From assembly GCF_056746865.1 (NCBI RefSeq), contig NZ_CM163382.1: 64,000 nt of DNA. One strand, given 5' to 3'. Below the pieces are notes generated by a model. It saw only the letters and a list, made by a program, of their open reading frames with translations, made no database searches and was not told where the DNA came from. Of this stretch, positions 1,641 through 42,208 are shown one piece after another. How positions within the stretch are numbered: the stretch's first letter is position 1; every line of letters starts with the position of its first letter. The position numbers were made by a program, and so were the translations under genes.

Positions 1641-1644
1641 TAAC

Positions 1645-3209: not shown

Positions 3210-3235
<26 letters not shown>

Positions 3236-4937: not shown

Positions 4938-5858
4938 TTACAGAGTTTCCTCAAAGAACGGCGCTAATACTGAAATTGCTTCAGCCACATAGACTTTGCC
5001 GTCATAAAGATCCATATGGTTTGCGCCTTCAACAATGTGATAGCGTTTATCCTGGCTTGATGCTCGATCGTACAGGTCGTCACTCATCCATTTGCTCCCT
5101 GCCTGGCTGCCCGCCACAATCTGTATCGGCTGAGTCAGGTACACTTCCGCCATATGGTAAGCATCATAGGTAATAATCTGGTTAAGGCTGCGCAAAGTAG
5201 TGTAACCCGGTGCTGTTGGATACTGCGCGCGAGGGGTGTGGTAATACTCCCAGGCCTGACGCAGTTCTTCGTTCGGCGCATCGGACTCCTTCATTGGTGC
5301 CAGTGGCATGGTGGCGTATTCTCCGCTGCTAATATCGCTGGTTCGGGCGTTTGAACCCGCGTCAACGTATGGTAGGGCATCAATAGATTTCACATTGTTT
5401 TCCCAACCATTACGGAACATCGAACCAATATTGACCGCACTAACAGTACCGATGGCCTTGATGCGGCGATCCTGAATTGCAGCATTGGCTGTATATCCTG
5501 CACCGGCACAAATTCCCATCGCACCAATTCGGCTATTGTCGACATAAGAAAGCGTTGTCAGATAATCAATCACGGCACTGACGTCTTCAGTACGAATGTA
5601 TGGGTTTTCTAACTGACGCGGCTCGCCGCCGCTTTCACCTTGATAAGATGCGTCATAAGCAATAGTGACAAATCCCTTTTCCGCCAGTTTTTCGGCATAG
5701 GTTCCAGCCGTTTGCTCTTTAACGCCCCCACCTGGGTGAGATACCACAATTGCCGGATACTGACGGGTTTCATCAAATTTTGGAGGGAAATAGATCACTG
5801 CAGACAAAGAGATGGTTGGATTATTGCTGTTAGTGAAGCTGACTTTATTATTCATCAT
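4938..5858 (-). CDS. ycjY: Alpha/beta hydrolase (dienelactone hydrolase-like), 306 aa
   Basis: ORF 4938..5870; start set to internal Met for 306 aa; GxSxG-like segment GAMGICAGAGY. Confidence 0.8.
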   Translation of the reverse strand: MMNNKVSFTNSNNPTISLSAVIYFPPKFDETRQYPAIVVSHPGGGVKEQTAGTYAEKLAEKGFVTIAYDASYQGESGGEPRQLENPYIRTEDVSAVIDYLTTLSYVDNSRIGAMGICAGAGYTANAAIQDRRIKAIGTVSAVNIGSMFRNGWENNVKSIDALPYVDAGSNARTSDISSGEYATMPLAPMKESDAPNEELRQAWEYYHTPRAQYPTAPGYTTLRSLNQIITYDAYHMAEVYLTQPIQIVAGSQAGSKWMSDDLYDRASSQDKRYHIVEGANHMDLYDGKVYVAEAISVLAPFFEETL

Positions 5859-5928
5859 TCCGTTCCTCATGGAGTTGTCGGTTCGTTTTAACGGTTGGTG
5901 ATATCACTATAGATATTGATCATTAAGT

Positions 5929-5971
5929 TGATTAGACCCAAAATCATGATTAGACCTATCATTTAAATGAT
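5929..5971. promoter_or_regulatory. Putative LysR-type operator in the ycjY-pgrR divergent region
   Basis: direct repeat tgattagacc x2 (5929..5938, 5947..5956) followed by perfect palindrome atcatttaaatgat (5958..5971), 25 bp upstream of the pgrR ATG. Confidence 0.4.
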
Positions 5972-5995
5972 TAATAGATTGTATGGAGATACTGA

Positions 5996-9927: not shown

Positions 9928-10170
9928 TGTTTTATCAGGCTCCTCCAGATAATTGTCGTCATGCCGGAAACCCCTGGCGGGGCTATTTTACCGCGACAAT
10001 TCATTGAGATCATCAATAGTCAGGGAAGGAAGTAGCAACATTAGCTAACTAATCAATGCGTTGATTGTAAATCCAGCTAAGAGGTGAGGTTTTCAGAGCA
10101 GACAACGGTGAAATGTCATGGTATTGTTACGTTTAGGTAACAAGAAATTTGTCTGCACAAGGATTACATC

Positions 10171-18784: not shown

Positions 18785-19348
18785 ATGAACCTTGACGACA
18801 AATCGCTGTTTCTTGACGCCATGGAAGATGTCCAGCCGCTGAAACGTGCTACAGATGTCCACTGGCATCCAACGCGTAACCAACGTGCGCCGCAGCGTAT
18901 CGACACGCTGCAACTTGATAATTTCCTCACCACTGGATTTCTCGACATCATCCCGCTAAGTCAGCCGCTGGAGTTTCGGCGGGAAGGGTTGCAACATGGG
19001 GTGCTGGATAAGCTGCGCAGTGGTAAATATCCGCAACAGGCGAGCCTGAATCTTTTGCGCCAGCCGGTGGAAGAGTGCCGCAAAATGATGTTCAGTTTCA
19101 TTCAACAAGCCATGGCGGATGGTTTGCGTAATGTGCTGATTATTCATGGTAAAGGGCGGGAAGATAAATCGCATGCCAATATTGTCCGCAGCTATGTGGC
19201 GCGCTGGCTGACCGAATTTGATGATGTTCAGGCATATTGCACCGCGCTACCGCATCATGGCGGCAGCGGGGCGTGTTACGTCGCACTACGTAAAACGGCG
19301 CAGGCGAAGCAAGAAAACTGGGAGCGCCACGCTAAGCGCAGTCGTTGA
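18785..19348 (+). CDS. smrA: Smr-domain DNA endonuclease, 187 aa
   Basis: C-terminal Smr domain (IIHGKGRED...); synteny (formerly ydaL). Confidence 0.82.
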   Translation: MNLDDKSLFLDAMEDVQPLKRATDVHWHPTRNQRAPQRIDTLQLDNFLTTGFLDIIPLSQPLEFRREGLQHGVLDKLRSGKYPQQASLNLLRQPVEECRKMMFSFIQQAMADGLRNVLIIHGKGREDKSHANIVRSYVARWLTEFDDVQAYCTALPHHGGSGACYVALRKTAQAKQENWERHAKRSR

Positions 19349-19368
19349 TCTCGAGACGCATCCGCGGC

Positions 19369-20601
19369 TTATGCCGCCAGCACGCGGTTGCGTCCATCAT
19401 TTTTCGCCCGATACAAAGCATCATCAACGCGTTTAAACAGTTCATCGATGCTTTCATTTCCTTCGTGATGCGCCACACCAATGCTGACGGTAAAGCGTGG
19501 TAAGCCCGAAATACTCACTTTTGCCACGCTTACGCGGATAGTTTCAGCCAGCGAAAGCGCGGTATCCAGTGGGGTTCTTGGTAGCAATAAGACAAACTCT
19601 TCGCCTCCCCAACGAAACACCAAATCGCCTTTGCGAGCGCAACTTTCGAGGGTGCGGGCGAGGGCGCATAACACCTCATCACCTTTAGAATGCCCATAGA
19701 GATCGTTAATGTGTTTAAAACGATCGGTGTCGATGAGCAATAAGCTGTAATCCTGAGCGATGGCGAGGTGCTGCATTTGGCCTGGCTCGGTAATGTGGTA
19801 AAACTGTCGCCGATTCAGTAATCCGGTCATCGCGTCATGGTGGGCAGCATGTTCCAGCTGCTCCTCCAGCCGTTTTTGCTCAGTAATATCATGCACAATA
19901 CATAACATGAGCTTGTCGCCATAAATTTCAATCGGCCCAGCATAGGTCTGCACATGACGAGTCGAACCATCCGCCAGTTTATGAACAAAATTCAAAGGCT
20001 TATGGCCACCGGGTAAATGCGAAATTTCATGCATGATAGGCATGACGCGTCGCCCGAGCATATTTATTTCCCAGGTATGTTTCTGGCACATCGTTTCATG
20101 GTTATAGCCATAGAAATTGAGCGCGGCGAGGTTAGCATCGACGATTTGGCCATCTCGTGAGGGGTCAATCAACAACATTGGTGCAGAGTTAGTCAGAAAA
20201 AAGCGCGCATAAAAACCTTGTTTTTTGCGCTGATAATTTGCCGAGCGACTGGCTTTTAAACCCAGCGTTGCCGGTGCTTCGATACCTTCGAAAATAATCA
20301 CCGGTTCTGCTTCTGTCAGCTTTCGCAAAACAAGCCGACAGCTTAATGCTGTTTCCTCTTCTTTACGTTGAACGGTGAGGATTTCGATAATATCGTGTTG
20401 GTTTTGCAGATCGGAGAGGTATTTTGGCAGTTCTTTTTGTGAGGAGACGGAATAGGGACCGGTTCGTAGCTGACTAAACGTGAGGTCTTGCATCAACAGT
20501 CGCGCCGCGCTATTGGCATAAATTAACTGTTCCTCAAAGGGCGAAACGATCCAGACAGGACTGGTGAGTAAGTCCAGGGTATTGAAGTTGTGCGTAATCA
20601 T
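19369..20601 (-). CDS. dgcM: Diguanylate cyclase (tandem PAS + GGDEF), 410 aa
   Basis: ORF 19369..20661; start set to internal Met for 410 aa; GGEEF motif (RWGGEEFVLLL). Confidence 0.88.
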   Translation of the reverse strand: MITHNFNTLDLLTSPVWIVSPFEEQLIYANSAARLLMQDLTFSQLRTGPYSVSSQKELPKYLSDLQNQHDIIEILTVQRKEEETALSCRLVLRKLTEAEPVIIFEGIEAPATLGLKASRSANYQRKKQGFYARFFLTNSAPMLLIDPSRDGQIVDANLAALNFYGYNHETMCQKHTWEINMLGRRVMPIMHEISHLPGGHKPLNFVHKLADGSTRHVQTYAGPIEIYGDKLMLCIVHDITEQKRLEEQLEHAAHHDAMTGLLNRRQFYHITEPGQMQHLAIAQDYSLLLIDTDRFKHINDLYGHSKGDEVLCALARTLESCARKGDLVFRWGGEEFVLLLPRTPLDTALSLAETIRVSVAKVSISGLPRFTVSIGVAHHEGNESIDELFKRVDDALYRAKNDGRNRVLAA

Positions 20602-20834
20602 TGAGATCCCGTTATTTTTATCAATTTTTGTTGCTATCCGATCGCAAAAAAGCCACGTCATATGATCAGATAATTCTGATAATGATAGACGCTATTTAAC
20701 ACTTCACACGGTTTGTATACGGAAAAGCATTTTGCTTTTTGTATTCAATTTAGACAGAATTTTATTAATCATTTCAGGGTAATGGGGTGATGAGATGTTG
20801 CGTAACAGGGCCAGAAGGCTAGACTACAAAATAA

Positions 20835-21839
<1,005 letters not shown>

Positions 21840-21885
21840 CAAAAGAAATTTTCCCAGCTGTCTGTATACAAAAACGCCGCAAAGT

Positions 21886-21899
21886 TTGAGCGAAGTCAA
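21886..21899. promoter_or_regulatory. FNR binding site of the fnrS promoter
   Basis: TTGAG-cgaa-GTCAA dyad centred about 42 bp upstream of the fnrS 5' end (class II position). Confidence 0.7.
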
Positions 21900-21934
21900 T
21901 AAACTCTCTACCCATTCAGGGCAATATCTCTCTT

Positions 21935-22056
21935 GCAGGTGAATGCAACGTCAAGCGATGGGCGTTGCGCTCCATATTGTCTTACTTCCTTTTTTGAATT
22001 ACTGCATAGCACAATTGATTCGTACGACGCCGACTTTGATGAGTCGGCTTTTTTTT
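21935..22056 (+). ncRNA. fnrS: FnrS small regulatory RNA
   Basis: sequence gcaggtgaatgcaacgtcaagcgatgggcg...cgccgactttgatgagtcggcttttttttt matches FnrS as I recall it, with an intrinsic terminator at the 3' end. Confidence 0.88.
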
Positions 22057-22114
22057 TGCCTGTTATTTATCAGCGTCTACCCTTTAAGAGTCCACCCAAT
22101 GACCGGAGGGAAAT

Positions 22115-22288
22115 ATGACGACACTTATTTATTTGCAAATTCCTGTCCCTGAACCGATTCCTGGCGATCCTGTTCCAGTGCCCGATCCGATCCCTCGCCC
22201 GCAACCCATGCCTGACCCACCACCCGATGAAGAACCGATTAAATTGTCGCATCGTGAGCGTAGATCTGCGAGGATACGCGCCTGCTGA
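22115..22288 (+). CDS. Proline-rich small ORF (57 aa) immediately upstream of dbpA; hypothetical
   Basis: ATG preceded by GGAGGG at 5-nt spacing; translation MTTLIYLQIPVPEPIPGDPVPVPDPIPRPQPMPDPPPDEEPIKLSHRERRSARIRAC; below the 60-aa cut-off of the ORF track. Confidence 0.4.
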   Translation: MTTLIYLQIPVPEPIPGDPVPVPDPIPRPQPMPDPPPDEEPIKLSHRERRSARIRAC

Positions 22289-22317
22289 CTTTGCGTCGAT
22301 GACCACGAGAATAGATT

Positions 22318-23691
22318 GTGACCGCTTTTTCTACCCTGAATGTTTTGCCTCCCGCCCAACTCACGAACCTTGATGAGTTGGGTTATTTAACCATGACGCC
22401 GGTGCAGGCCGCCGCGCTTCCGGCGATCCTTGCCGGAAAAGATGTTCGCGTGCAGGCGAAAACCGGCAGCGGCAAAACGGCGGCTTTTGGCCTCGGCTTG
22501 TTACAGCAAATTGATGCGTCGCTATTTCAAACCCAGGCTTTAGTGCTGTGTCCTACGCGTGAACTGGCGGATCAGGTGGCAGGTGAATTGCGTCGGCTGG
22601 CGCGTTTTCTGCCAAATACCAAAATTTTGACGTTGTGCGGTGGTCAACCGTTCGGTATGCAGCGTGATTCGTTGCAACATGCGCCGCATATTATCGTGGC
22701 AACGCCGGGCCGTTTGTTGGATCATCTGCAAAAAGGCACGGTATCACTGGATGCGTTGAATACGCTGGTGATGGATGAGGCCGATCGCATGCTGGATATG
22801 GGATTTAGCGATGCCATTGATGATGTCATCCGTTTTGCGCCTGCATCTCGACAGACGCTTCTGTTTTCGGCAACCTGGCCGGAAGCCATCGCCGCAATCA
22901 GCGGACGAGTGCAACGCGATCCTTTAGCGATTGAAATTGACTCAACAGATGCTCTGCCACCTATTGAACAACAATTTTATGAGACATCCAGCAAAGGCAA
23001 AATTCCGTTGTTGCAAAGGTTATTAAGTTTGCATCAGCCATCCTCTTGCGTGGTGTTTTGCAATACCAAAAAAGATTGCCAGGCTGTCTGCGACGCGCTG
23101 AATGAAGTAGGGCAAAGTGCATTGTCGTTACACGGCGATCTGGAGCAACGTGATCGCGATCAGACCCTGGTACGTTTTGCTAACGGTAGCGCCCGTGTAC
23201 TGGTTGCGACTGATGTTGCTGCTCGAGGTCTGGATATTAAATCGCTTGAGCTGGTGGTGAACTTTGAGCTGGCGTGGGATCCTGAAGTTCATGTACATCG
23301 CATCGGTCGTACAGCGCGTGCAGGAAATAGCGGTCTGGCGATCAGTTTCTGTGCCCCGGAAGAAGCACAGCGGGCCAATATCATTTCTGACATGTTGCAG
23401 ATAAAACTTAACTGGCAAACGCCGCCAGTTAATAGTTCCATTGTGCCGCTGGAAGCCGAAATGGCAACGTTATGTATCGATGGCGGGAAAAAAGCCAAAA
23501 TGCGCCCGGGTGATGTATTAGGTGCGCTGACAGGAGATATCGGGCTTGATGGCGCAGATATTGGCAAAATCGCCGTGCATCCGGCGCATGTCTATGTCGC
23601 GGTGCGTCAGGCTGTTGCTCATAAAGCATGGAAACAGTTACAGGGCGGGAAGATTAAAGGAAAAACGTGCCGGGTGCGGTTATTAAAATAA
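22318..23691 (+). CDS. dbpA: ATP-dependent DEAD-box RNA helicase DbpA (23S rRNA-specific), 457 aa
   Basis: GTG start; Walker A AKTGSGKT, DEAD box (VMDEAD), SAT motif. Confidence 0.92.
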   Translation: MTAFSTLNVLPPAQLTNLDELGYLTMTPVQAAALPAILAGKDVRVQAKTGSGKTAAFGLGLLQQIDASLFQTQALVLCPTRELADQVAGELRRLARFLPNTKILTLCGGQPFGMQRDSLQHAPHIIVATPGRLLDHLQKGTVSLDALNTLVMDEADRMLDMGFSDAIDDVIRFAPASRQTLLFSATWPEAIAAISGRVQRDPLAIEIDSTDALPPIEQQFYETSSKGKIPLLQRLLSLHQPSSCVVFCNTKKDCQAVCDALNEVGQSALSLHGDLEQRDRDQTLVRFANGSARVLVATDVAARGLDIKSLELVVNFELAWDPEVHVHRIGRTARAGNSGLAISFCAPEEAQRANIISDMLQIKLNWQTPPVNSSIVPLEAEMATLCIDGGKKAKMRPGDVLGALTGDIGLDGADIGKIAVHPAHVYVAVRQAVAHKAWKQLQGGKIKGKTCRVRLLK

Positions 23692-23738
23692 TGAAATGTT
23701 GAATCGCAGGGTGCAAGAGTCAACATCTTCTTCGGGAT

Positions 23739-23818
23739 TGCCGGATGCGACGCTGGCCGCGTCTTCTCCGGCCTCCATAAGAGTAGCCCGATAAGCTTGC
23801 GCATCGGGCGCTATCCGG
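23739..23818. repeat. Pair of REP-like palindromic elements (BIME-like) between convergent dbpA and ttcA
   Basis: gccggatgcgacgctggccgcgtcttctccggcc and gcccgataagcttgcgcatcgggcgctatccgg resemble the E. coli REP consensus in opposite orientations. Confidence 0.55.
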
Positions 23819-23819
23819 G

Positions 23820-24755
23820 TTATTTCACTTCAACCACATTCAGTCGTAACTCATCCAACTGATTTTCATCTTCTTCAGGCTGCCAACCCGCCGGTTGTAG
23901 AGGGATCTCTTCGCGATCAAACGCCAGATCACCCCCGTTAACCACTTCAGAACCGTGGGTAATGCCTTTGAAATCGAACAGGTTGGTATCGCACAGATGC
24001 GACGGCACCACATTCTGCATCGCGCTGAACATCGTCTCGATACGCCCCGGATAACGTTTATCCCAGTCACGCAACATGTCAGCAATCACCTGACGTTGCA
24101 GGTTAGGCTGTGAACCGCACAGGTTGCACGGAATAATCGGGAACGCTTTTGCATCGGCAAAGCGCTGAATATCTTTCTCGCGGCAGTAGGCCAGAGGGCG
24201 AATCACGATATGTTTGCCATCATCGCTCATCAGTTTCGGAGGCATACCTTTCATCTTGCCGCCGTAGAACATATTTAAGAACAACGTTTGCAGGATATCG
24301 TCACGATGGTGACCCAGCGCGATCTTCGTCGCTCCCAGTTCCGTTGCGGTACGATAAAGGATACCGCGACGAAGACGAGAACACAGTGAGCAAGTGGTTT
24401 TGCCCTCCGGAATCTTCTCTTTCACGATACCGTAAGTGTTCTCTTCAACAATCTTGTACTCAACGCCCAGCTTTTCAAGATACTCGGGCAGAACGTGTTC
24501 CGGGAAGCCCGGTTGCTTTTGATCGAGGTTAACAGCCACCAGCGAAAAATTGATTGGCGCGCTTTGCTGCAAATTGCGCAGAATTTCCAGCATGGTATAG
24601 CTGTCTTTACCCCCGGAGAGGCAAACCATGATGCGATCGCCTTCTTCAATCATATTGAAGTCAGCAATGGCTTCGCCCACGTTACGACGCAGACGTTTTT
24701 GTAATTTGTTCAGGTTGTATTGTTCTTTCTTACTAATTTCTTGATTTTGCGACAT
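23820..24755 (-). CDS. ttcA: tRNA 2-thiocytidine(32) synthetase TtcA, 311 aa
   Basis: PP-loop SGGKDS and CxxC motifs; synteny. Confidence 0.92.
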
Positions 24756-24930
24756 TTAAAAGCGACTCAATTCGTTATATGGCATCAGAAGAGTATGCGT
24801 CATGCCGGAACGCCCAGCATAAGAAATCTGATATAAAAACTGTGGCGTGTATGGTACGGATTAGAGGGGAAAATGTCAGCACATTTGCGAAATGAATCAA
24901 AAAGCCCGCAGCAATGTGCGGGCGTTAGTG

Positions 24931-25446
<516 letters not shown>

Positions 25447-25505
25447 TTAGATCAAAGGAGGAAGAATAAGCAGAAAAAGCCCGCCATAACAGCGGGCAGG
25501 AGGAT

Positions 25506-26639
25506 TTAGAACTGATAAACCAGACCTAAAGCGACAATATCATCGGTAGAGATGCCATTGGCAGCGTAGAAGCTGTCATCTTCATCCAACAGGTTGATTT
25601 TATAGTCAACGTAGGTGGACATATTTTTGTTGAAATAGTAAGTCGCGCCAACATCGGCGTATTTAACCAGATCTTTATCATCAACACCTGCCGGGTTGTC
25701 TGCACCACCGGCAGCGTGCAGGTCACGGCCTTTAGACATCAGGAAAGAGACTGCCGGACGCAGACCAAAATCAAACTGGTACTGTGCAGTAACTTCAAAG
25801 TTCTGGGTTTTGTTAGCAACAGCATAATCGCTGTCGCCAAACGGGGTCATATTACGCGTTTCTGAATACATGGTTGCCAGGTAAATATTGTTAGCATCGT
25901 ATTTTAGCCCAGCAGTCCACGCGTCTGCTTTATCACCACCCGCCGCAGTATGGTTAACCTGGTCATTGGTGCGGTCAGAAGAGGTGTATGCCGCACCAGC
26001 GCTAAAGCCCATGCCTAAATCATATGTTGTGGAAAGACCCCAGCCGTCACCGTTTTCATGGCGAACATCACGTCCGTTGTTGGTGCCTTCCTGACCATTA
26101 CTGGCACCTTCGTTGTTACCTTGATACTGCACCGCGAAGTTCAGACCATTTACCAGACCGAAGAAATCAGTATTACGATAAGTCGCGACGCCATTGGCAC
26201 GACCAGTCATAAAGTTGTCTGCATTGGTATAAGAGTCACCGCCAAATTCAGGCAGCATATCGGTCCAGCCTTCGATGTCGTACATTACGCCATAATTACG
26301 TCCGTAATCGAAAGAACCGTAATCTGCAAATTTCAATCCGGCAAATGCCAGACGGGTCCATGACTGGTTTTTTGAAGATTCAGTGTTGTTTGCCTGAATA
26401 TTGTATTCCCATTGACCGTAGCCAGTAAGTTGATCGTTAATTTGGGTTTCGCCTTTAAAACCCAGACGCGCATAGCTCTGGTCGCCATCTTTCGCTGAAT
26501 TATCAGAAAAATAATGTAGTCCATCAACTTTGCCATACAGATCTAATTTGTTGCCGTCTTTATTATAAACTTCGGCTGCATGTGCAGCACCTGCGGCGAG
26601 CAGGGTAGGAATTAAAAATGCCAGTACTTTGCTTTTCAT
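25506..26639 (-). CDS. ompN: Outer membrane porin OmpN (OmpC/OmpF family), 377 aa
   Basis: signal peptide [21 protein letters not shown], general-porin signature, C-terminal ...LGLVYQF. Confidence 0.9.
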
Positions 26640-26867
26640 TGAATAAATCCTTTAGTTATTTTATTTGCCTTTTCATCCCCATTTTGGGGAGTGAAAACAT
26701 CCTAAAGGAGAAGTTCCGTTAGCCGATAAATATCATTTGTTACGCCTTAAGTAAAACCTTAATCAAATAATTCTACGGAAATGATGATAAGTTTGGTGAA
26801 TATATTATTGGCGACATATACAAAATAAAAATTATACATTTAAATAGTGATGCGTTATTCTTCGCGG

Positions 26868-26972
26868 GTTATATGCCTTTATTGTCACAAAGATTATTTT
26901 CTGTTGGACCCTTGTTACTGTTTATCCAACAAATAATGAGACAAGCCCGAACAGTCGTCCGGGCTTTTTTTT
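26868..26972 (+). ncRNA. micC: MicC small RNA (ompC-targeting, Hfq-dependent)
   Basis: 5' end gttatatgcctttattgtcaca and 3' terminator aagcccgaacagtcgtccgggctttttttt; divergent from ompN as expected. Confidence 0.8.
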
Positions 26973-27000
26973 AGAATTGGATAATCCTTATCCAGTGCAT

Positions 27001-30000
27001 TTAATCGGTGTTGCTTTTTTCCGCTTTTCCGGCCATTTGTGCCAGGAAGTCATAGCGTTTTTGCAAATCAGCTGCAGCATCTTTCCATAACTGTTCTGCC
27101 ACTTCTGGCTGCTGCGAATTCAGACGACGGAAACGTTGCTCATGAAGTAACGTTTCTTCCAGTGCTTCTGACGGCGGGCGTGAATCCAGCGCCAGCGGCA
27201 GTTTGCCTTCATCGGCACGACGAGGATCGAAGCGATATAGCGGCCAGAAGCCGGTAGCAGTGAGTTGGCGCATCTGGTCGTGGCTGAGAGCCAGATCGTA
27301 ACCATGCTCTTCACACGGGCTATAAGCGATGATCAGCGATGGTCCCGGATACGCTTCCGCTTCCTGAATTGCTTTCACCGTCTGGTTCAGCTGCGCGCCG
27401 AGAGAAATCTGCGCCACATAAACATGGCCGTACATCATCATACTGACGCCAAGATCTTTACGCGCTTTACGTTTGCCGTGCTCGCCAAACTTAGTTACTG
27501 CACCCAGCGGTGTCGCTTTTGACGCCTGACCACCGGTATTGGAATAGCATTGCGTATCCAGCACCAGAATGTTGACGTTTTCCGTCAAACTCAATACATG
27601 ATCCAGACCGCCAAAGCCGATATCGTAAGCCCAGCCGTCGCCACCAATCAGCCAGATTGATTTTTCTACCAGTGCATCTGCGTCACGTAGCAGTTCATGT
27701 GCTTCGGCAACATCGTTGAGTTGCTGGCGTAAAGCTGCAACCTGTTCACGACGAACCTCTGGCGTGGCGTCTGATTTCAACGCAGTCAGTAATTCCGCCG
27801 GGATTTTATCGGCAAATTGATCCAGCAGACGCAGTATGCGGACACGGTGTTGATCGACCGTCAGGCGGAAACCAAGGCCAAATTCGGCGTTATCTTCAAA
27901 CAGCGAGTTCGCCCATGCCGGTCCACGACCGTTGGCATCGGTAGTATACGGTGTAGAGGGCAGGTTACCGCCATAAATTGAAGAACAGCCGGTGGCGTTA
28001 GCGATCAACATCCGGTCGCCATAGAGCTGAGTCAGCAATTTAATATACGGCGTCTCGCCACAACCGGAGCAAGCACCTGAATATTCAAACAGAGGTGTAA
28101 TCAGCTGCGATGTACGAATATCAATACGTTCCAGTTTGCTACGGTCGATTTCTGGGAGGTTGAGGAAGAAATCGTAATTGATTTTCTCTTCTTCGACATG
28201 TTCCAGGCGCGACATCATATTGATGGCTTTAATCTCTGGATTCTGACGGTCTTTCGCCGGGCAAACTTCGACGCACAGGTTACAGCCGGTGCAATCTTCC
28301 GGTGCCACCTGCAAGACATATTTCTGCCCGCGCATATCACGCGATTTTACATCCAGCGAATGCAGGCTGGCAGGGGCGTTTTCCATCGCTTCAGGCGGTA
28401 CCACTTTTGCGCGAATAGCTGAGTGTGGGCAAGCAGCGACGCAGTGGTTACATTGGGTACAGAGTTCCTCTTTCCAGATGGGGATCTCTTCGGCGATATT
28501 GCGTTTTTCCCAGCGCGTGGTGCCCATCGGCCAGGTGCCGTCTGGCGGCAGCGCCGAAACGGGGAGGGCATCACCAAGCCCGGCGAGCATCGCCGCGGTT
28601 ACGGTTTTCACGAAATCAGGGGCGGCATCGGAAACCACTGGCGGTCGATTGGCGCTGTGCGGATTAACCGGCTGCAGCGGAACTTCTTCTACGGATTCAC
28701 GTGCCAGCGCCAGAGCCTGCCAGTTGCGTTCCACCAGATCCTGACCTTTGCTACTGTAACTTTTGGCAATCGCACCCTGCAATTCTGCGAGGGCGCTATC
28801 GCCAGGCAGAATTTGCGTAAGATGGAAAAAAGCCATCTGCATGACGGTATTAATACGGGCCGCCAGACCACATTCGCGGGCGATTTTCGCCGCGTTAATC
28901 ACATAGAAGCGCGCTTTTTTCTGGTTTAACACGGCCTGAACTTCCTGCGGCAAGCGCGACCATACTTCATCTGCGCTGTACGGCGTGTTGAGCAGGAAAA
29001 TGCCGCCAGGTTTTAAACGTTCAGCCATCTGATATTTATCGATAAACTGCAACTGGTGGCAGCCAACAAAATCAGCCTGGGAAATGAGATAAGCGGAACG
29101 AATCGGCTGCTCGCTCACGCGAAGGTGAGAAACCGTCAGGCCGCCCGCCTTTTTGGAGTCGTAAACAAAATAGCCCTGTGCGTACCACGGCGTGGAATTA
29201 CCGATAATCTTGATATTGTTTTTGGTCGCGGAAACGCTGCCATCACTACCAAGGCCATAAAACAAGGCTTCAAGTTTCGCCGAGTTTGGCAGGGTGTTTT
29301 CCGGCAACGGCAGTGACAGATTGGTCACATCATCGTAAATACCAACCGTAAAGCGCGCTTTCGGTTTAGCCGCGTTGAGCTCGGCAAATACCGCCAGTAC
29401 ACAGTCCGGGCCAAATTCTTTGGATGAAAGACCATAGCGCCCACCAATGACACGGGGCAGGGTTTCGCGCTCGCCATTATTAAAGGCTTCTGCCAGTGCG
29501 GTCATCACATCCAGATAGAGCGGTTCTGCCTGGGCACCGGGTTCTTTGGTTCTGTCCAGTACCGCCACGCTGCGTACGGATCCCGGCAGAGCTTGTAGCA
29601 AGTGTTTGGCGGAGAAGGGACGGTACAGGCGAACTTTCAGCACGCCGACTTTTTCGCCACGGGTTAGCAATTCATCAACCACTTCTTCACAGGTGCCAAT
29701 GGCAGAGCCCATCAGGATAATCACCCGTTCCGCTTGCGGATGCCCGTAATACTCAAACGGCTGATACTGACGACCTGTCGCGGCAGCGAAATCATTCATC
29801 GCCTGTTCAACATGGTCATAGACCGCGTTGTACCATGGGTTGGTGGCTTCGCGAGACTGGAAATAAGTGTCAGGATTGGCGGACGTACCGCGGATCACCG
29901 GATGTTCCGGGTTGAGCGCCCGGGCGCGATGAGCATCAATTTCGGCCTGCGGCATCAGTTCAAGAATAGTGTCATCGGCCAGCGGGACAATTTTATTGAT

Positions 30001-30525
30001 CTCGTGGGACGTGCGGAAACCATCAAAGAAATGAATAAATGGCACGCGACTCTTCAGCGTCGCGATGTGCGAAATAAGAGCAAAGTCTTGCGCTTCCTGG
30101 ACGTTTGCTGCACACAACATCGCGCAACCCGTCTGGCGCACCGCCATAACGTCGGAATGATCGCCAAAAATAGAGAGTGCATGTGTGGCAACGGTACGTG
30201 CCGCTACATGCAGGACAAATGGCGTCAGTTCGCCTGCCAGTTTGTACAGCGTCGGGATCATCAGCAGCAAACCCTGCGATGACGTAAACGATGTTGAAAG
30301 GGCACCCGTCTGCAAAGCGCCATGCACGGTAGCGATAGCACCCGCTTCCGACTGCATTTCAACCACGCGTGGTGTGTCTCCCCAGACGTTTTTCAAGCCG
30401 TTTCCGGCCCATGCATCAGCCTGTTCTGCCATCGTGGAACTGGGGGTAATAGGGTAGATGGCGATAACTTCACTGGTGCGAAACGCCACCGAAGCAACCG
30501 CGCCATTACCGTCAATAGTAATCAT
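27001..30525 (-). CDS. ydbK: Pyruvate:flavodoxin/ferredoxin oxidoreductase, 1174 aa
   Basis: PFOR domain order with 4Fe-4S ferredoxin cysteine clusters (CTQCNHCVAACP, CTGCNLCVEVCP) and TPP-binding domain. Confidence 0.93.
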   Translation of the reverse strand: MITIDGNGAVASVAFRTSEVIAIYPITPSSTMAEQADAWAGNGLKNVWGDTPRVVEMQSEAGAIATVHGALQTGALSTSFTSSQGLLLMIPTLYKLAGELTPFVLHVAARTVATHALSIFGDHSDVMAVRQTGCAMLCAANVQEAQDFALISHIATLKSRVPFIHFFDGFRTSHEINKIVPLADDTILELMPQAEIDAHRARALNPEHPVIRGTSANPDTYFQSREATNPWYNAVYDHVEQAMNDFAAATGRQYQPFEYYGHPQAERVIILMGSAIGTCEEVVDELLTRGEKVGVLKVRLYRPFSAKHLLQALPGSVRSVAVLDRTKEPGAQAEPLYLDVMTALAEAFNNGERETLPRVIGGRYGLSSKEFGPDCVLAVFAELNAAKPKARFTVGIYDDVTNLSLPLPENTLPNSAKLEALFYGLGSDGSVSATKNNIKIIGNSTPWYAQGYFVYDSKKAGGLTVSHLRVSEQPIRSAYLISQADFVGCHQLQFIDKYQMAERLKPGGIFLLNTPYSADEVWSRLPQEVQAVLNQKKARFYVINAAKIARECGLAARINTVMQMAFFHLTQILPGDSALAELQGAIAKSYSSKGQDLVERNWQALALARESVEEVPLQPVNPHSANRPPVVSDAAPDFVKTVTAAMLAGLGDALPVSALPPDGTWPMGTTRWEKRNIAEEIPIWKEELCTQCNHCVAACPHSAIRAKVVPPEAMENAPASLHSLDVKSRDMRGQKYVLQVAPEDCTGCNLCVEVCPAKDRQNPEIKAINMMSRLEHVEEEKINYDFFLNLPEIDRSKLERIDIRTSQLITPLFEYSGACSGCGETPYIKLLTQLYGDRMLIANATGCSSIYGGNLPSTPYTTDANGRGPAWANSLFEDNAEFGLGFRLTVDQHRVRILRLLDQFADKIPAELLTALKSDATPEVRREQVAALRQQLNDVAEAHELLRDADALVEKSIWLIGGDGWAYDIGFGGLDHVLSLTENVNILVLDTQCYSNTGGQASKATPLGAVTKFGEHGKRKARKDLGVSMMMYGHVYVAQISLGAQLNQTVKAIQEAEAYPGPSLIIAYSPCEEHGYDLALSHDQMRQLTATGFWPLYRFDPRRADEGKLPLALDSRPPSEALEETLLHEQRFRRLNSQQPEVAEQLWKDAAADLQKRYDFLAQMAGKAEKSNTD

Positions 30526-30798
30526 ATGACACCCTTACATTGCGCAAATGAGGGGCGCACGAAATTGCTGCGCGCCCAGTAGTTATCTTTCAATTTTAGC
30601 AAATGGCTTTCTTCTGCATTTTCGCTTTTGTGTCCCCCACATCAGCGTAATGAATGTTTTGATCAAACAGAGGGCAAAAAAATAGCCATAAAAAAGTAAA
30701 AATGCGGGGCAACGCGCAGGACAGCTCTCGACGCCGCCCTCTGTGCTGCCTATTATTTATGGCGGTGTCGTTTGGCTTGAAGATCAGAGGAAGAAAAG

Positions 30799-31065
30799 AT
30801 GCGAGCAGCGTTTTGGGTAGGGTGTGCCGCTTTATTATTGTCGGCGTGTAGTAGTGAACCTGTTCAGCAGGCGACTGCGGCGCACGTAGCGCCAGGTTTA
30901 AAAGCGTCGATGTCCAGTAGTGGAGAAGCAAATTGTGCAATGATCGGCGGTTCGCTTTCTGTTGCCCGTCAACTGGATGGTACGGCGATTGGGATGTGTG
31001 CATTACCCAACGGCAAACGCTGTAGCGAACAGTCACTTGCCGCCGGGAGCTGTGGCAGCTATTAA
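30799..31065 (+). CDS. ydbJ: Small lipoprotein (DUF333), 88 aa
   Basis: lipobox LLLSAC; synteny. Confidence 0.75.
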   Translation: MRAAFWVGCAALLLSACSSEPVQQATAAHVAPGLKASMSSSGEANCAMIGGSLSVARQLDGTAIGMCALPNGKRCSEQSLAAGSCGSY

Positions 31066-31484
31066 TTCATTAAATCCGCCAGCTTATAAGTTAATGTCTG
31101 TTTCGCGGTCGCCAGCGTTAACTGGTTCGCGGTCAGATCCACTTGTGCACCTTCTTTCAGCATTTCGCTAATGGTGTTATCGAGTTCATTAAGCTGCGGG
31201 TTAGCGCACATCATACGGGTCATTGCCAGCCCTTTGGCTGTCAGTTCACCATTAGACAGTTTGCCTTCACCGCTAAAGCGGTTACACATGCTGCCGGAAA
31301 TCATCATCTTTTCACCAAAGCTGATTTCTGGCGGATTTTTATCGCTGGTCACGGGCTTACCGTTTACGCTTTCCAGCACAAAGCGATGATGCTGTAGCTG
31401 TTCTGGGGTTACAGCAATTTTGTCATTACTTACACATCCCGCCATCAGCAGGCTTAGCGCAACGAGCGCGGCTACTTTCTTCAT
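31062..31484 (-). CDS. hslJ: Heat-shock lipoprotein HslJ (META domain), 140 aa
   Basis: ORF 31062..31496; start set to internal Met for 140 aa; lipobox LMAGC. Confidence 0.85.
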   Translation of the reverse strand: MKKVAALVALSLLMAGCVSNDKIAVTPEQLQHHRFVLESVNGKPVTSDKNPPEISFGEKMMISGSMCNRFSGEGKLSNGELTAKGLAMTRMMCANPQLNELDNTISEMLKEGAQVDLTANQLTLATAKQTLTYKLADLMN

Positions 31485-31594
31485 TGTGGTTCTCAATTAC
31501 AGTTTCTGACTCAGGACTATTTTAAGAATAGAGGATGAAAGGTCTTTGGGGATTATCTGAATAAGCTCCCCTGGAATGCAGGGGAGCGGCAAGA

Positions 31595-32584
31595 TTAAAC
31601 CAGTTCGTTCGGGCAGGTTTCGCCTTTTTCCAGATTGCTTAAGTTTTGCAGCGTAGTCTGAGAAATACTGGTCAGTGCTTCTGCTGTCAGGAATGCCTGG
31701 TGCCCGGTAAACAGCACGTTGTGGCAGGCAGACAGACGACGGAATACGTCATCCTGGATCACGTCGTTGGATTTGTCTTCAAAGAACAGATCGCGTTCGT
31801 TCTCATACACGTCCATACCCAACGAACCAATTTTCTGATTTTTCAGCGCTTCAATTGCCGCCTGAGAATCAATCAATGCACCGCGACTGGTATTGACGAT
31901 CATCACGCCATTTTTCATCTGATCGAAGGCGGCTTCGTTCAACAGATGGTAGTTTTCCGGTGTCAGCGGGCAGTGCAGAGAGATAACGTCTGATTCAGAG
32001 AACAGGGTTGGCAGATCGACATACTCCACACCGAGTTCCAGTGCCGCCGCACTTGGATACGGATCGAATGCCAGCAGACGCATACCAAAACCTTTCAGAA
32101 TGCGCAGCATCGCCACACCGATTTTACCGGTACCGATAACGCCTGCCGTTTTGCCATACATAGTAAAGCCGGTCAGACCTTCCAGAGAGAAGTTGGCGTC
32201 ACGAGTACGCTGATACGCGCGATGAATACGGCGGTTCAGCGTCATCATCATACCGATGGCGTGTTCAGCAACGGCTTCTGGATCATAGGCTGGAACACGG
32301 ACTACTTTCAGCCCCAGTTCTTTTGCCGCGTCAAGGTCGACGTTATTAAAACCGGCACAGCGCAGGGCGATATATTTAACGCCGTGCTTTTTCAGCTCTT
32401 CCAGCACCGGGCGGCTGCCGTCATCGTTTACGAAAATACATACCGCTTCGCAGCCATTGGCAGTTTTAGCGGTTTTTTCCGTCAGCAGAAAGTCAAAAAA
32501 TTCCAGCTCAAAGCCAAAGGACTCGTTCACCTGTTGCAGGTACTTCTTGTCGTACTGTTTTGTGCTATAAACGGCGAGTTTCAT
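31595..32584 (-). CDS. ldhA: Fermentative D-lactate dehydrogenase (NAD-dependent), 329 aa
   Basis: D-isomer 2-hydroxyacid dehydrogenase motifs (GVIGTGKIG); synteny. Confidence 0.93.
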   Translation of the reverse strand: MKLAVYSTKQYDKKYLQQVNESFGFELEFFDFLLTEKTAKTANGCEAVCIFVNDDGSRPVLEELKKHGVKYIALRCAGFNNVDLDAAKELGLKVVRVPAYDPEAVAEHAIGMMMTLNRRIHRAYQRTRDANFSLEGLTGFTMYGKTAGVIGTGKIGVAMLRILKGFGMRLLAFDPYPSAAALELGVEYVDLPTLFSESDVISLHCPLTPENYHLLNEAAFDQMKNGVMIVNTSRGALIDSQAAIEALKNQKIGSLGMDVYENERDLFFEDKSNDVIQDDVFRRLSACHNVLFTGHQAFLTAEALTSISQTTLQNLSNLEKGETCPNELV

Positions 32585-32791
32585 AAGACTTTCTCCAGTG
32601 ATGTTGAATCACATTTAAGCTACTAAAAATATTTTACAAAATTTCAAATATAATTGAAAGCCATGGCGATATTGAAAAATTCATCAACAACTATGCTTAG
32701 TGTAGGCGCAACCTTCAACTGAACGGTTAAACATGCCACAATACCCGTATTGAATGCTTAATTTTTCGCTAAATCAGGATATTAACTACCC

Positions 32792-35431
32792 ATGCTGGGT
32801 AAATATAAAGCCGTTCTCGCGCTGTTATTACTGATTATTCTTGTGCCGTTGACGCTGCTGATGACGCTCGGCTTGTGGGTTCCCACGCTGGCGGGCATCT
32901 GGCTACCGCTCGGGACACGTATTGCATTAGATGAAAGCCCACGCATTACGCGTAAAGGTTTAATCATCCCCGATCTCCGTTATCTGGTGGGAGATTGTCA
33001 GCTTGCGCATATCACCAACGCCAGCCTTTCACATCCCAGCCGCTGGTTATTGAACGTCGGTACGGTAGAACTTGATTCTGCTTGTCTGGCGAAATTGCCG
33101 CAGACGGAGCAATCGCCAGCTGCTCCAAAAACCCTCGCGCAGTGGCAGGCCATGTTGCCTAACACCTGGATCAATATCGATAAACTGATTTTTTCTCCCT
33201 GGCAGGAATGGCAGGGAAAACTCTCTCTCGCATTAACCTCCGATATCCAGCAACTGCGTTATCAGGGCGAAAAAGTTAAATTTCAAGGCCAGCTGAAAGG
33301 GCAACAACTTACAGTCAGCGAACTGGATGTCGTCGCGTTTGAAAATCAGCCGCCGGTTAAACTGGTGGGGGAATTTACTATGCCGCTAGTGCCGGATGGA
33401 CTTCCTGTAAGTGGTCATGCTACTGCGACGTTAAACTTGCCGCAGGAGCCTTCACTGGTGGATGCCGAGCTGGACTGGCAGGAAAATAGCGGGCAATTGA
33501 TTGTGCTGGCACGGGATAATGGCGATCCGTTGCTCGATCTGCCGTGGCAAATTACTCGCCAACAATTGACTGTAAGCGATGGTCGCTGGAGCTGGCCGTA
33601 TGCAGGTTTTCCTTTGAGTGGCAGACTGGGTGTCAAAGTCGACAACTGGCAGGCAGGGCTCGAGAACGCTCTGGTCAGCGGACGACTGAGTGTGCTGACC
33701 CAGGGGCAAGCGGGTAAGGGCAACGCGGTGCTTAATTTTGGCCCTGGAAAATTAAGCATGGATAACAGCCAGCTGCCTTTGCAGCTGACCGGTGAAGCGA
33801 AACAGGCGGATCTCATTTTATATGCCCGCTTACCTGCGCAGCTAAGCGGAAGTCTGACTGACCCAACGCTGGCCTTTGAGCCAGGCGCGTTATTACGTTC
33901 GAAGGGAAGAGTCATCGATTCGCTGGACATCGATGAAATCCGCTGGCCTTTAGCGGGTGTAAAAGTCACCCAACGTGGTGTTGACGGACGTTTGCAGGCC
34001 ATTTTGCAGGCGCATGAAAATGAACTGGGCGATTTCGTGCTGCATATGGATGGGCTGGCGAATGATTTTCTCCCTGACGCTGGCCGCTGGCAGTGGCGCT
34101 ACTGGGGAAAAGGGAGTTTTACACCGATGAATGCCACCTGGGATGTTGCAGGAAAAGGTGAGTGGCATGACAGCACGATTACGCTGACCGATCTCTCCAC
34201 CGGTTTCGACCAGTTACAATACGGTACGATGACGGTAGAAAAGCCGCGATTAATTCTCGACAAGCCCGTCGTCTGGGTACGTGACGCACAGCATCCCTCC
34301 TTTAGCGGCGCGCTGTCACTGGACGCCGGGCAAACGCTGTTCACTGGCGGCAGTGTGTTACCGCCATCAACCTTAAAATTTAGCGTCGATGGACGCGATC
34401 CGACGTATTTCCTATATAAAGGCGATTTACATGCTGGTGAGATTGGCCCGGTTCGGGTAAATGGTCGCTGGGACGGTATTCGTCTGCGCGGTAACGCCTG
34501 GTGGCCTAAACAATCACTGACCGTATTCCAGCCGCTGGTGCCACCCGACTGGAAGATGAACTTACGCGATGGCGAACTGTATGCTCAGGTCGCATTTTCT
34601 GCTGCGCCTGAACAAGGATTCCGCGCGGGAGGGCACGGTGTGTTGAAAGGCGGTAGTGCCTGGATGCCAGATAATCAGGTTAACGGTGTCGATTTTGTCC
34701 TGCCTTTCCGTTTTGCCGATGGAGCCTGGCATCTGGGGACTCGCGGCCCCGTTACGTTGCGAATTGCCGAAGTGATTAATCTGGTGACAGCGAAAAATAT
34801 TACGGCTGATTTGCAAGGGCGCTATCCGTGGACAGAAGAAGAACCATTGTTGTTGACTGATGTTAGCGTCGATGTGTTAGGCGGTAACGTGCTGATGAAA
34901 CAATTACGTATGCCGCAACATGACCCGGCGCTGTTGCGGCTGAATAATCTCTCATCCAGCGAACTGGTTAGCGCCGTCAATCCGAAACAATTCGCCATGT
35001 CCGGGGCATTTAGTGGTGCATTGCCGTTATGGCTAAACAACGAAAAATGGATAGTGAAAGATGGCTGGCTGGCAAATAGCGGGCCAATGACCTTGCGGCT
35101 GGATAAAGACACCGCAGATGCGGTGGTGAAAGGCAATATGACTGCGGGTTCAGCAATTAACTGGTTGCGCTATATGGAAATTAGCCGTTCATCGACAAAT
35201 ATTAATTTAGATAATCTCGGTTTATTAACCATGCAGGCCAACATTACAGGTACCAGTCGCGTTGATGGTAAAAGCGGTACGGTAAACCTTAATTACCATC
35301 ATGAAGAGAATATTTTTACGCTGTGGCGCAGTTTACGCTTTGGCGATAATCTCCAGGCATGGTTGGAGCAGAACGCACGTCTGCCGGGAAATGACTGTCC
35401 GCAAGGAAAAGAGTGTGAGGAAAAACAATGA
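32792..35431 (+). CDS. ydbH: AsmA-like (TamB/YhdP paralogue) envelope protein YdbH, 879 aa
   Basis: N-terminal TM anchor followed by long beta-rich repeat region; stop overlaps ynbE start (ATGA). Confidence 0.88.
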   Translation: MLGKYKAVLALLLLIILVPLTLLMTLGLWVPTLAGIWLPLGTRIALDESPRITRKGLIIPDLRYLVGDCQLAHITNASLSHPSRWLLNVGTVELDSACLAKLPQTEQSPAAPKTLAQWQAMLPNTWINIDKLIFSPWQEWQGKLSLALTSDIQQLRYQGEKVKFQGQLKGQQLTVSELDVVAFENQPPVKLVGEFTMPLVPDGLPVSGHATATLNLPQEPSLVDAELDWQENSGQLIVLARDNGDPLLDLPWQITRQQLTVSDGRWSWPYAGFPLSGRLGVKVDNWQAGLENALVSGRLSVLTQGQAGKGNAVLNFGPGKLSMDNSQLPLQLTGEAKQADLILYARLPAQLSGSLTDPTLAFEPGALLRSKGRVIDSLDIDEIRWPLAGVKVTQRGVDGRLQAILQAHENELGDFVLHMDGLANDFLPDAGRWQWRYWGKGSFTPMNATWDVAGKGEWHDSTITLTDLSTGFDQLQYGTMTVEKPRLILDKPVVWVRDAQHPSFSGALSLDAGQTLFTGGSVLPPSTLKFSVDGRDPTYFLYKGDLHAGEIGPVRVNGRWDGIRLRGNAWWPKQSLTVFQPLVPPDWKMNLRDGELYAQVAFSAAPEQGFRAGGHGVLKGGSAWMPDNQVNGVDFVLPFRFADGAWHLGTRGPVTLRIAEVINLVTAKNITADLQGRYPWTEEEPLLLTDVSVDVLGGNVLMKQLRMPQHDPALLRLNNLSSSELVSAVNPKQFAMSGAFSGALPLWLNNEKWIVKDGWLANSGPMTLRLDKDTADAVVKGNMTAGSAINWLRYMEISRSSTNINLDNLGLLTMQANITGTSRVDGKSGTVNLNYHHEENIFTLWRSLRFGDNLQAWLEQNARLPGNDCPQGKECEEKQ

Positions 35432-35617: not shown

Positions 35618-35944
35618 ATGATGAAGAAAACATTACTTCTTTGTGCGTTTCTTGTTGGGCTGGTAAGCAGCAATGTAATGGCATTGACTCTGGATGAAGC
35701 CAGAACTCAGGGGCGGGTAGGTGAAACATTTTATGGTTATCTGGTTGCGCTGAAAACAGATGCTGAAACGCTGGAATTAGTAAAAGATATTAATGAAGCT
35801 CGTAATCTGAGTTACCAACAATTGGCAAAGCAAAATAATGTATCCACTGATGAGATAGCAAAATTGGCAGGGCAAAAAATGGTTGCTCGCGCGAAGCCGG
35901 GAGAATATGTGCAGGGGATTAATGGAAAATGGCTGCAAAAATAA
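35618..35944 (+). CDS. ydbL: Periplasmic protein YdbL (DUF1318), 108 aa
   Basis: ORF 35540..35944; start set to internal Met (MMKKTLLLCAFLVGLVSSNVMA signal peptide) for 108 aa. Confidence 0.8.
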   Translation: MMKKTLLLCAFLVGLVSSNVMALTLDEARTQGRVGETFYGYLVALKTDAETLELVKDINEARNLSYQQLAKQNNVSTDEIAKLAGQKMVARAKPGEYVQGINGKWLQK

Positions 35945-36369
35945 TTTCATATCCATATCCATATTCATTATGTTGCGCCATTTTGTGAATATTTAAGGGA
36001 AAATAAGTTCTGGACTAAGGCGATTTTTATTTGCATCTATTGAATTGTTATAAGTCCGATATAGGGGAGTGTCTATTTTATTTTTGATGGTTTTTTATGT
36101 GTAATTATAATTGTAAGAAATGTTATATTATTTAGTATTTACTGGGTGTATTGTTTTTTAATGCCTTAACCTCTTATTAAATATCATTTAAGTTGAATTG
36201 ACTTCAACGGATAGTATAAATTATTAGAACATCACATATTTTTGATTGGTTCTTTATTTATATTTCTTTCGTGAATATAAACACCAATCATGGTCTTGCG
36301 TTCCGTCAAAAAGGCCCGCTTTTATTTTTGTCGACTGGCGTGCAACGCTCTATTTCTAAGGAAATATAA

Positions 36370-39300
36370 ATGCAAAGGAAAAAATTGTTGTCTGTGTGTG
36401 TGGCGATGGCATTGAGCGGTCAGACATGGGCAACTGATACATCGATCCTGGATATAACTGATGACACCCGGAAATCCAGCAAGATCACATGTCCGGCGAA
36501 TATTCATTCTATTAGCAAAGAGCAGTTAGCTAAATTACCATCAGAATGTCGGGATTCTGATGACAGCGCCGTAATGAGCTGGACTGCAGCTGGCCTGGTT
36601 GCAGTCGTTACAGGAGCCGCGGTGATGGCGCTTAATGATGGTGATCATCATGACAGTTCAGAACCAGATGACGGTGGTGATACACCTGTTCCACCAGATG
36701 ACGGTGGTGATACACCTGTTCCACCAGATGACGGTGGTGATACACCTGTTCCTCCAGATGACGGTGGCGATACACCAGTTCCACCAGACGATGGTGGCGA
36801 TACACCAGTTCCACCAGACGACGGTGGTGATACACCTGTTCCTCCAGATGACGGTGGCGACGTCACTCCACCAAAAGAGCCCAAAATCTTCAATAACAGT
36901 GTCACATTCGACGAAGACAAAGGCACGCTGCAAATTCGCAATGCCACCTTTACCTACAGCAAAAACAGTGATGGAAGTTACACCCTGACGGCTGAAGATG
37001 GCCGAACCTCTATTGTGCAGGGCTGGGATGTCGACACCGATGCCAATACGGTAGAAATTACCGGCGTGAATAACCTTGGCGGTATGACGTGGTGTTACGG
37101 TAAAGACGGCATTATCTATATCACCAAAACCGTCGGCGCAACGGTGGATGACCCCGCGAACAGCAACGTATTTAACCTCAGCGATGCGGTGCTCACCGAC
37201 CAGGGCGGTAATGCCGCGCTGAATGGCGCGACGGTGATTGAAATAAACGGCAGCAGGATCGCCCTTAATAACGACGGTGATATTTCTGCTACGGGAAAAG
37301 ATTCTGTGGTTGTGGCGATAACCGGAAACGATATTACCGTTAACAATAACGGCCATATGGTTGTCGATGGCGGCACAGCGGGCGTGGTTAACGGCGATCG
37401 TGCAATCCTGAATAACCGCGGTGATGCAGTGATCACTAACGGCGGCACGGGTGTCATTGTGACGGGTGACAACGCGGTTATCAACAACATGGGGCAAAGC
37501 GATATTGATGGCGACAACTCGGTATCGGTAAAAGTTGCAGGAAACGCAACCAGAATCAGAATGGAAGGCGGGATCAATGTCAGCGGTGGCGCGCATGGCA
37601 TTGATGCCACCGGTGATAATAACGAAGTCAGCAACAAGGGCAACATTTCGGTGGTGGATGCGCATTCCACGGGCGTGCTGCTGAACGGCGATCGCGCGTC
37701 ATTCATTAATATGGGTGATATTAACGTTAGCGGAGGTGCAGCGGACGATCACTCTAATGGTGTGCAGATCAACGGCGATAACAGTACCTTTATCAACGTT
37801 GGAGATTTAAATGCCGACGACAGGGCGACCGGGGTGAAAATTAACGGTGACGCCAGCGACATTGCCCTGGCCGGGGCGATGCATGTCGGGGATTTTTCCA
37901 CCGGGCTGGAGGTGATGGGTAAAAACAATGATCTGTCGTTGTCCACCAATATGATGGATGTCACCGGGAAACAGTCCACCGGGGTGACCATTACAGGTGA
38001 TGATAATACCATTGATATCACCGGTGATATGGTCGTTGATCAAAACTCTGTCGGGGCGAAAATTGTCGGCGATCGCGTTTCGTTGCAACAGAAAGGTGAT
38101 ATTACCGTTAACGGTGCGGGGCACGGCGTTGAAGTCAGCGGTAGTAAGACGACAATCAATAATCAGGGCAAACTGACCGTAAAAGATCAAGACTCAATCG
38201 GTATCGTTATCACCGGAGATGACGCGCAATTTACTACCGTGGGTGAGATTGATGTCTCGCTGAACGGTACGGGTGTTGCGATCAGCGGCGATCGTGAACA
38301 AGTGAATTTGAGCGGTGATATAAATGTCATTCAGGAGCGTGACGGCAGCGGTACTTTCCAGGGCGGAACGGGCATCAGCATAATGAGCAACGACAGCAGT
38401 ATGCTGTTGACGGGAAACATTAATGTGACGTCCAGTATGGGGGACCAACCGTCCACCTCACCCCAGTCGTTAACCGGCGTTACCATCGAGGGGGAAAACA
38501 ATACTGTCGATCTGGAAGGCGACATCAATATTACTGTCGATTCGGATTACCTGGGGGATGAAAACAGTCTTTACGGCGTGGTTGTTTTGGGTACAAACAA
38601 CACCATCAATCTCGATGGTGGTATCAATATCTCTGGTGATAGTGGTGGACATACTATCAAAGGTGTGCAGGTAACAGGAAATAATACCGTCAATATAAGT
38701 GGTCATTCCGTAATGAATACCCGACAGATATTGGGATCCTTCTCTCTGATTTCGGTGGCTGATGGCGGGAATGTCATATTTGATGAAAACGCGATAACCG
38801 AGATTCAGAGTTCAGTGAGAGATAGTGACTATCTTTTTTTCGATGCATCGTTAATTGTTGCTACGGGAAACCAGTCTGTTATTCAGAACAACGGCATTAT
38901 TAATACAACCGATGCTCAAGAATTAATGATGGCGAATTCGGGGGCGCAAGTTGTCAATGCCGGGGTGATTAATATCAGGCCAGATGCTGAATCACACACT
39001 TTCTTTGCTGGAATGATGGCAAGAAGCGATGACTCGCAGGCAAAAAATGCCTCCGGAGGAACAATCAATCTGACATCCATTACCCGGCCTTTTAGCAGCG
39101 GAGGATTTAACGAGCGCCCGATCAAATGGTATCACAACACGGGTTATGCCTTGTTGGCCAGTAATTACGGATCGGTAATCAATGAAACAGGAGCAACCAT
39201 TAATTTGCATGGTGCAGGAACCTATGGTGTTTCCGCTTCAAAAGGAACGGCGACCAATGCGGGCGAGATAAATGTCGACGGCTTTGTTCCAATAGTAGAT

Positions 39301-42189: not shown

Positions 42190-42208
42190 TTTTTAGCATG
42201 TGATACAC

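Follow-up and report, generated by a model that had tools for sequence, protein, structure and literature searches.

The 5' end of ttcA is a known integration site of Rac and Rac-like lambdoid prophages in E. coli. In K-12 MG1655 (NC_000913.3), the RefSeq annotation gives the order dbpA, ttcA, intR, xisR ... ynaE, ynaM, ttcC (a pseudogene), uspF, ompN, and the "cryptic prophage Rac" feature spans 1411899-1434958, or 23,060 bp. CP-933R (EDL933), Sp10 (Sakai) and Rac-SA53 (KU052037.1) use the same ttcA attachment site and likewise have a surrogate ttcA 5' end beside an IntR-type integrase. A comparable arrangement exists at icd, where e14 and phage 21 integrate at the 3' end of the gene and supply a replacement gene end; here too, the phage brings an imperfect duplicate that keeps the interrupted host gene functional. 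Rac differs from e14 and phage 21 in replacing the 5' end of its host gene (the start codon and the first 8 codons) rather than the 3' end, and because it is the 5' end that is replaced, the native upstream region is parted from ttcA in lysogens.

The effect of losing Rac has been described in K-12 by Liu et al. (2015, Sci Rep 5:16074, PMC4632033), who published the attL, attR and attB sequences and reported that Rac is excision proficient. Experimental excision changes four N-terminal residues of TtcA, the matching between attL and attR being imperfect, and regenerates an allele termed TtcA', which strains without a ttcA prophage also have and which the authors interpreted as the ancient allele. 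They further placed CP-933R and Sp10 at this same site.

A sequence-only reading of the window (the whole 64,000-nt stretch of DNA analyzed here) had reported that ttcA is followed after about 175 bp by uspF with no integrase or phage genes, and had described Rac as separating these two genes in K-12. The window is chromosomal DNA of E. coli. The RefSeq annotation of NC_000913.3 agrees with the K-12 order so described, and the spacer in the window proved to be exactly 175 bp according to both the open reading frame (ORF) list and the sequence, with no integrase or phage ORF at 24756-24930 (Table 1). The two genes are also direct neighbors in the annotation of 118UI (NZ_CP032515.1), a urine isolate from Mexico City that is collinear with the window and differs from it by 4 mismatches in 64,000 positions (99.99% identity). 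Pfam searches assigned the flanking products to the PP-loop family (PF01171, E 1.2e-13) for ttcA and to the Usp family (PF00582, E 3.6e-31) for uspF.

Table 1. Features of the ttcA-uspF locus, in window coordinates
Feature	Position	Strand	Description and basis
ttcA	23820-24755	-	tRNA 2-thiocytidine(32) synthetase, 311 aa, intact; ORF and annotated ttcA in 118UI
Minimal common core TTGTTCAGGTTGTAT	24706-24720	.	15 bp; five-way alignment
attB core, exact identity block TTGTTCAGGTTGTATTGTTCTTTCTT	24706-24731	.	26 bp; ttcA CDS nt 25-50, codons 9-17; common to K-12 attL and attR
Native ttcA first 8 codons (ATG TCG CAA AAT CAA GAA ATT AGT)	24732-24755	-	Three-way alignment
Native ttcA upstream (promoter/5'-UTR) region and uspF 3' end region	24756-24930	-	Alignment to K-12
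Sigma-70 promoter-like site (CTGACA, 17 nt, TACCAT) facing ttcA	24851-24879	-	Consensus scan
uspF terminator-like hairpin GCCCGCA-CATTGC-TGCGGGC, then TTTTTGATTC	24904-24923	-	Begins 8 nt past the uspF stop codon
uspF	24931-25365	-	Universal stress protein F, 144 aa; annotated uspF in 118UI and K-12

We compared the window with a 34-kb K-12 locus covering ttcA, Rac and uspF using blastn. Exactly two alignments were obtained, both of them host flanks: positions 1-5942 of the K-12 locus matched window positions 18806-24748 with 98.2% identity, and positions 28960-34001 matched 24706-29741 with 97.5% identity, such that the two overlapped at window 24706-24748. Searching with the whole K-12 locus returned no match in the window to the intervening 23 kb of Rac DNA. 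The host flanks of K-12 Rac therefore abut in the window with no extra DNA between them, and given that the two are joined, the site is empty, as the sequence-only reading had proposed. The strain is without Rac at the ttcA site, and we are close to certain that the window contains the unoccupied attB of Rac or Rac-like lambdoid prophages, lying inside the 5' end of ttcA; no observation spoke against this reading. CP-933R, Sp10 and Rac-SA53 represent occupied sites, with an attL and an attR, whereas the window is their unoccupied counterpart. The emptiness of a site is a question of presence or absence, to which a test against chance is inapplicable.

Where exactly the attachment core lies was a separate matter. 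The sequence-only reading had sought it within the 175-bp spacer, but aligning the window jointly with the ttcA-intR and ynaM-ttcC junctions of K-12 (a three-way alignment) instead placed a block of exact identity, the 26-bp TTGTTCAGGTTGTATTGTTCTTTCTT, at 24706-24731, inside ttcA. The 64-kb window has a single copy of this block, and the K-12 locus has two (5900-5925 and 28960-28985), attL and attR. Both K-12 copies coincide exactly with the ends of the RefSeq Rac feature, position 1411899 being the first base of the block, and the GenBank record of Rac-SA53 (KU052037.1) labels the corresponding 26 bp as attP/attB. To the right of the block, a 24-bp stretch of imperfect similarity (24732-24755) runs up to the ttcA start codon. 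By these alignments, the attB core falls within the first 50 nt of ttcA, 25 to 50 bp left of the spacer. The earlier description of Rac as adjoining the 5' end of ttcA was correct as to position, but the prophage is not merely adjacent: it is inserted inside the 5' coding region, where it replaces the start and eight codons.

Comparison with a second prophage narrowed this block. In Rac-SA53, only 15 bp are exactly identical between the element's own two junctions. In a five-way alignment of the window with the two junctions of K-12 Rac and the two of Rac-SA53, TTGTTCAGGTTGTAT was the sole block identical throughout. Starting at window-equivalent position 24721, the attL of Rac-SA53 no longer follows attB and attR, while the attR of Rac-SA53 retains the attB sequence. 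This pattern of identity suggests that the strand exchange (overlap) region probably lies within 24706-24720.

The N terminus of TtcA also bears on the state of this site. TtcA of the window starts with MSQNQEIS, and its first 17 residues are identical to those of the translated K-12 ttcC pseudogene, in which the displaced original start of ttcA persists. K-12 TtcA starts with MQENQQITKKEQYNL, the phage-type first eight residues being MQENQQIT, and the two proteins differ only at residues 2, 3, 6, 8 and 290. The MSQNQEIS terminus is the ancestral (TtcA') form and MQENQQIT is supplied by Rac; that the window preserves the ancestral ttcA 5' region, as had been suggested from the sequence, is thus borne out by its agreement with translated ttcC. 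The K-12 delta-rac strain with its TtcA' protein (Liu et al. 2015, PMC4632033) matches the window in locus, core, MSQNQEIS terminus, four differing residues and the neighbors ttcA and uspF. The window differs from it in coming from a natural isolate background rather than an engineered K-12 derivative, with flanks 97.5-98.2% identical to those of K-12 and an additional TtcA difference (G290 in the window versus C290 in K-12).

These comparisons are compatible with a simple model of integration, in which the phage tyrosine integrase IntR would recombine the core at 24706-24731 with the phage attP, strand exchange would take place inside the 15-bp common block, as its sequence identity suggests, and XisR would be required for excision. 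In lysogens such as K-12, the comparison shows the 23,060 bp of prophage DNA lying between two core copies, and the phage end beside intR brings codons 1-8 of ttcA in imperfect form, with their own ATG. Because the phage end carries these codons, ttcA stays intact in lysogens with four altered residues, and the original first 17 codons are left beside uspF as ttcC. The window shows the other state, with a single core copy, the ancestral N terminus and the native 175-bp upstream region running directly into uspF.

The features of IntR and of the phage arms fit this model. Arm-binding and catalytic domains are expected for a lambda-type heterobivalent tyrosine integrase, and Pfam identified both an Arm-DNA-bind_2 domain (PF12167, E 3.9e-26) and a Phage_integrase domain (PF00589, E 6.6e-23) in IntR. 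Of the six copies of the motif GGGGCAAA across the 34-kb K-12 locus, five are in the phage arms next to the cores, with two approximately 50-60 bp from attL (locus 5974-5992) and three approximately 110-145 bp from attR (28817-28854). Rac-SA53 repeats the pattern, with a pair of copies next to each of its att sites, attL and attR (L005 796-814; L006 1019-1045), and there is none near the window site, at 24400-25100. From their placement, these repeats are likely candidates for arm-type IntR binding sites. The likeness to lambda-type integration consists of the arm-binding and tyrosine recombinase domains of IntR, the short core and the repeated motifs in the phage arms. Neither the ORF list nor the 118UI annotation places an integrase or excisionase next to the core in the window. 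As an attB should, the window has just the simple core-type partner.

We also searched a phage collection with an attP reconstructed from the K-12 prophage junctions. No record covered at least 80% of the query, and no free circular attP was found; the matches were prophage-derived records with either attL (the core and intR arm) or attR. Among those with attR was "Salmonella phage SPF_0923", a record that in fact contains the host genes uspF and ompN. Another record labeled as a phage, ON032529.1, really ends in host DNA (uspF, ompN and ydbK).

The spacer itself is purely host DNA and free of phage sequence, since it matches the spacer between ttcC and uspF of K-12 at 99.4% identity and differs from it in length by a single 1-bp indel (175 versus 176 bp). 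The hairpin downstream of uspF has a 7-pair stem with 6 G-C pairs and a T tract, and is probably the intrinsic terminator of that gene. The promoter-like site facing ttcA matches 9 of 12 consensus positions, and as one such site was found where 0.5 would be expected in shuffled sequence, the match is not significant alone; it might at most be put forward as a weak candidate for the native ttcA promoter. An Rfam scan of 20000-28000 placed no family within the spacer and matched only FnrS and MicC elsewhere. These small RNA genes, fnrS (21935-22052, 134.8 bits) and micC (26865-26980, 105.7 bits), are in their expected places flanking the ttcA-uspF-ompN block. Two candidate genes in this interval were set aside. 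A 51-aa ORF with a GTG start (24800-24955, minus strand) overlaps the uspF terminator and 3' end and is unannotated in the RefSeq records of both K-12 and 118UI, and a "hypothetical protein" assigned to the same spacer in ON032529.1 has the same overlaps and is likewise absent from the K-12 and 118UI annotations.

Lysogeny changes what lies upstream of ttcA. In lysogens, the native 175-bp upstream region is displaced 23 kb from the gene, and in the K-12 annotation ttcA follows intR, on the same strand, after 51 bp. Given this separation of ttcA from its native upstream region, Rac-type lysogeny might alter ttcA transcription. The only promoter mentioned in PMC4632033 is that of flhDC, so this question was apparently not addressed there. 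Tentatively, and with somewhat more doubt than confidence, we propose both that lysogeny may alter ttcA transcription (e.g., by read-through from intR) and, separately, that the recombination core proper may be 24706-24720 and thus shorter than the 26 bp annotated.

We then asked how common the empty site is, using as a probe the 100 bp centered on the core (24681-24780) and scoring a genome as contiguous when at least 80% of the probe was covered in one piece. The junction was intact in 2490 of the 5410 complete E. coli genomes with any match to the probe (46%), and a 1.1-kb probe gave 2488 contiguous genomes. In the remaining genomes (approximately 54%), the probe was broken at its position 26 (attR type) or 68 (attL type), equivalent to window 24706 and 24748, and a further class breaks at window 24859. 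Genome RIVM_C029670 has a remnant of approximately 2.3 kb between ttcA and uspF, in which there are fragments of an integrase and of DUF1627 along with a frameshifted metal ABC permease; its attR side is deleted up to window-equivalent 24859. Even O157:H7 genomes are polymorphic at the ttcA site, NE122 being contiguous and NE 1092-2 split. We also noted 9 or 10 matches to the junction probe on plasmids, and sit (manganese/iron ABC transporter) genes beside attR in some ttcA-site prophages or remnants (L003 3799-5984; L009 1-2294).

The known integration hot spot at ttcA commonly occurs in three states, one of them empty. An empty ttcA site is already known and ordinary, and the site, the core, the ancestral TtcA and the effect of excision have all been published (PMC4632033). 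The sequence-only reading had suggested that this strain is useful for defining attB, but it is not special in this respect: the att sequences and the four-residue change were already in print, ttcC is annotated in K-12, and approximately 46% of genomes are empty.

An empty site could have arisen in more than one way. One alternative is that the site once held a Rac-like prophage and was restored by precise IntR/XisR excision, such that it is only secondarily empty. Excision-proficient Rac regenerates exactly the TtcA' allele of the window (PMC4632033), and the variable occupancy within O157:H7 suggests frequent gain or loss. However, the window bears no positive sign of a former prophage, precise excision being scarless, and Liu et al. 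interpreted TtcA' as an ancient allele (PMC4632033); we regard a secondarily empty site as rather unlikely. Because precise excision restores exactly the sequence seen in the window, the same sequence is expected from either history and cannot tell a never-occupied site from an excised one, and since occupancy differs even among O157:H7 genomes, both histories are plausible.

A second alternative is that the spacer is what remains of a heavily degraded prophage and not a clean empty site. Many E. coli genomes have such remnants, as RIVM_C029670 illustrates, but the spacer of the window is nearly identical in sequence and length to the K-12 host segment, the TtcA N terminus is ancestral rather than phage type, and blastn matched no Rac sequence to the window. 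We found no integrase fragment or non-host DNA between ttcA and uspF, the spacer being host type, and rejected a degraded remnant, which retains next to no probability. Finally, we checked whether ttcA and uspF simply adjoin in all E. coli, K-12 included, with nothing missing, and this is not so: intR through ynaM and ttcC stand between the two genes in NC_000913.3, the 23,060-bp Rac intervening, and approximately 54% of complete genomes are split.

Several other differences between the window and K-12 were noted away from the attachment site. At window 10045-10048 there is no IS5F, an element that K-12 has between ynaI and ynaJ (1396044-1397238), and the K-12 alignments overlap there by 4 bp, consistent with an empty IS5 target site. 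Approximately 660 bp of the window (4068-4729) is missing from K-12; in 118UI, an SDR-family oxidoreductase is annotated as intact at 4229-4867 (minus strand), where all that K-12 has is ymjC and ymjD, both small fragments. At 35942-41074, the window lacks the feaR-feaB-tynA-paaZ-paaABCDEFGHIJK-paaXY cluster that K-12 has between ydbL and a ydbA-type autotransporter gene (K-12 1446201-1472898 unmatched). That autotransporter gene is intact in the window (5820 nt, approximately 36371-42190), unlike K-12 ydbA, which IS2D and IS30C interrupt. The 5' part of the window gene gave no megablast alignment to K-12, and the gene contains a tandem repetition with a 30-bp register at 36663-36860, where offset matches to the same 118UI gene are approximately 90-93% identical. 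Between hrpA and ydcF, approximately 1.15 kb (55195-56351) stands in place of 142 bp of K-12 and encodes an SMI1/KNR4-family protein, a small hypothetical protein and a short gene fragment, a content that looks like an orphan immunity-gene islet. K-12 gapC is a pseudogene, whereas the gene at the gapC position (window approximately 56900-57900; 118UI 1656805-1657806) carries the annotation of an intact type I glyceraldehyde-3-phosphate dehydrogenase in 118UI.

With no Rac at ttcA, recET, ralR, kilR, trkG and the other Rac genes are also missing at that locus in this strain. The empty site has little significance beyond annotation, and it provides a clean reference attB for typing prophages at the ttcA site, some of which have cargo such as sit genes in other strains.
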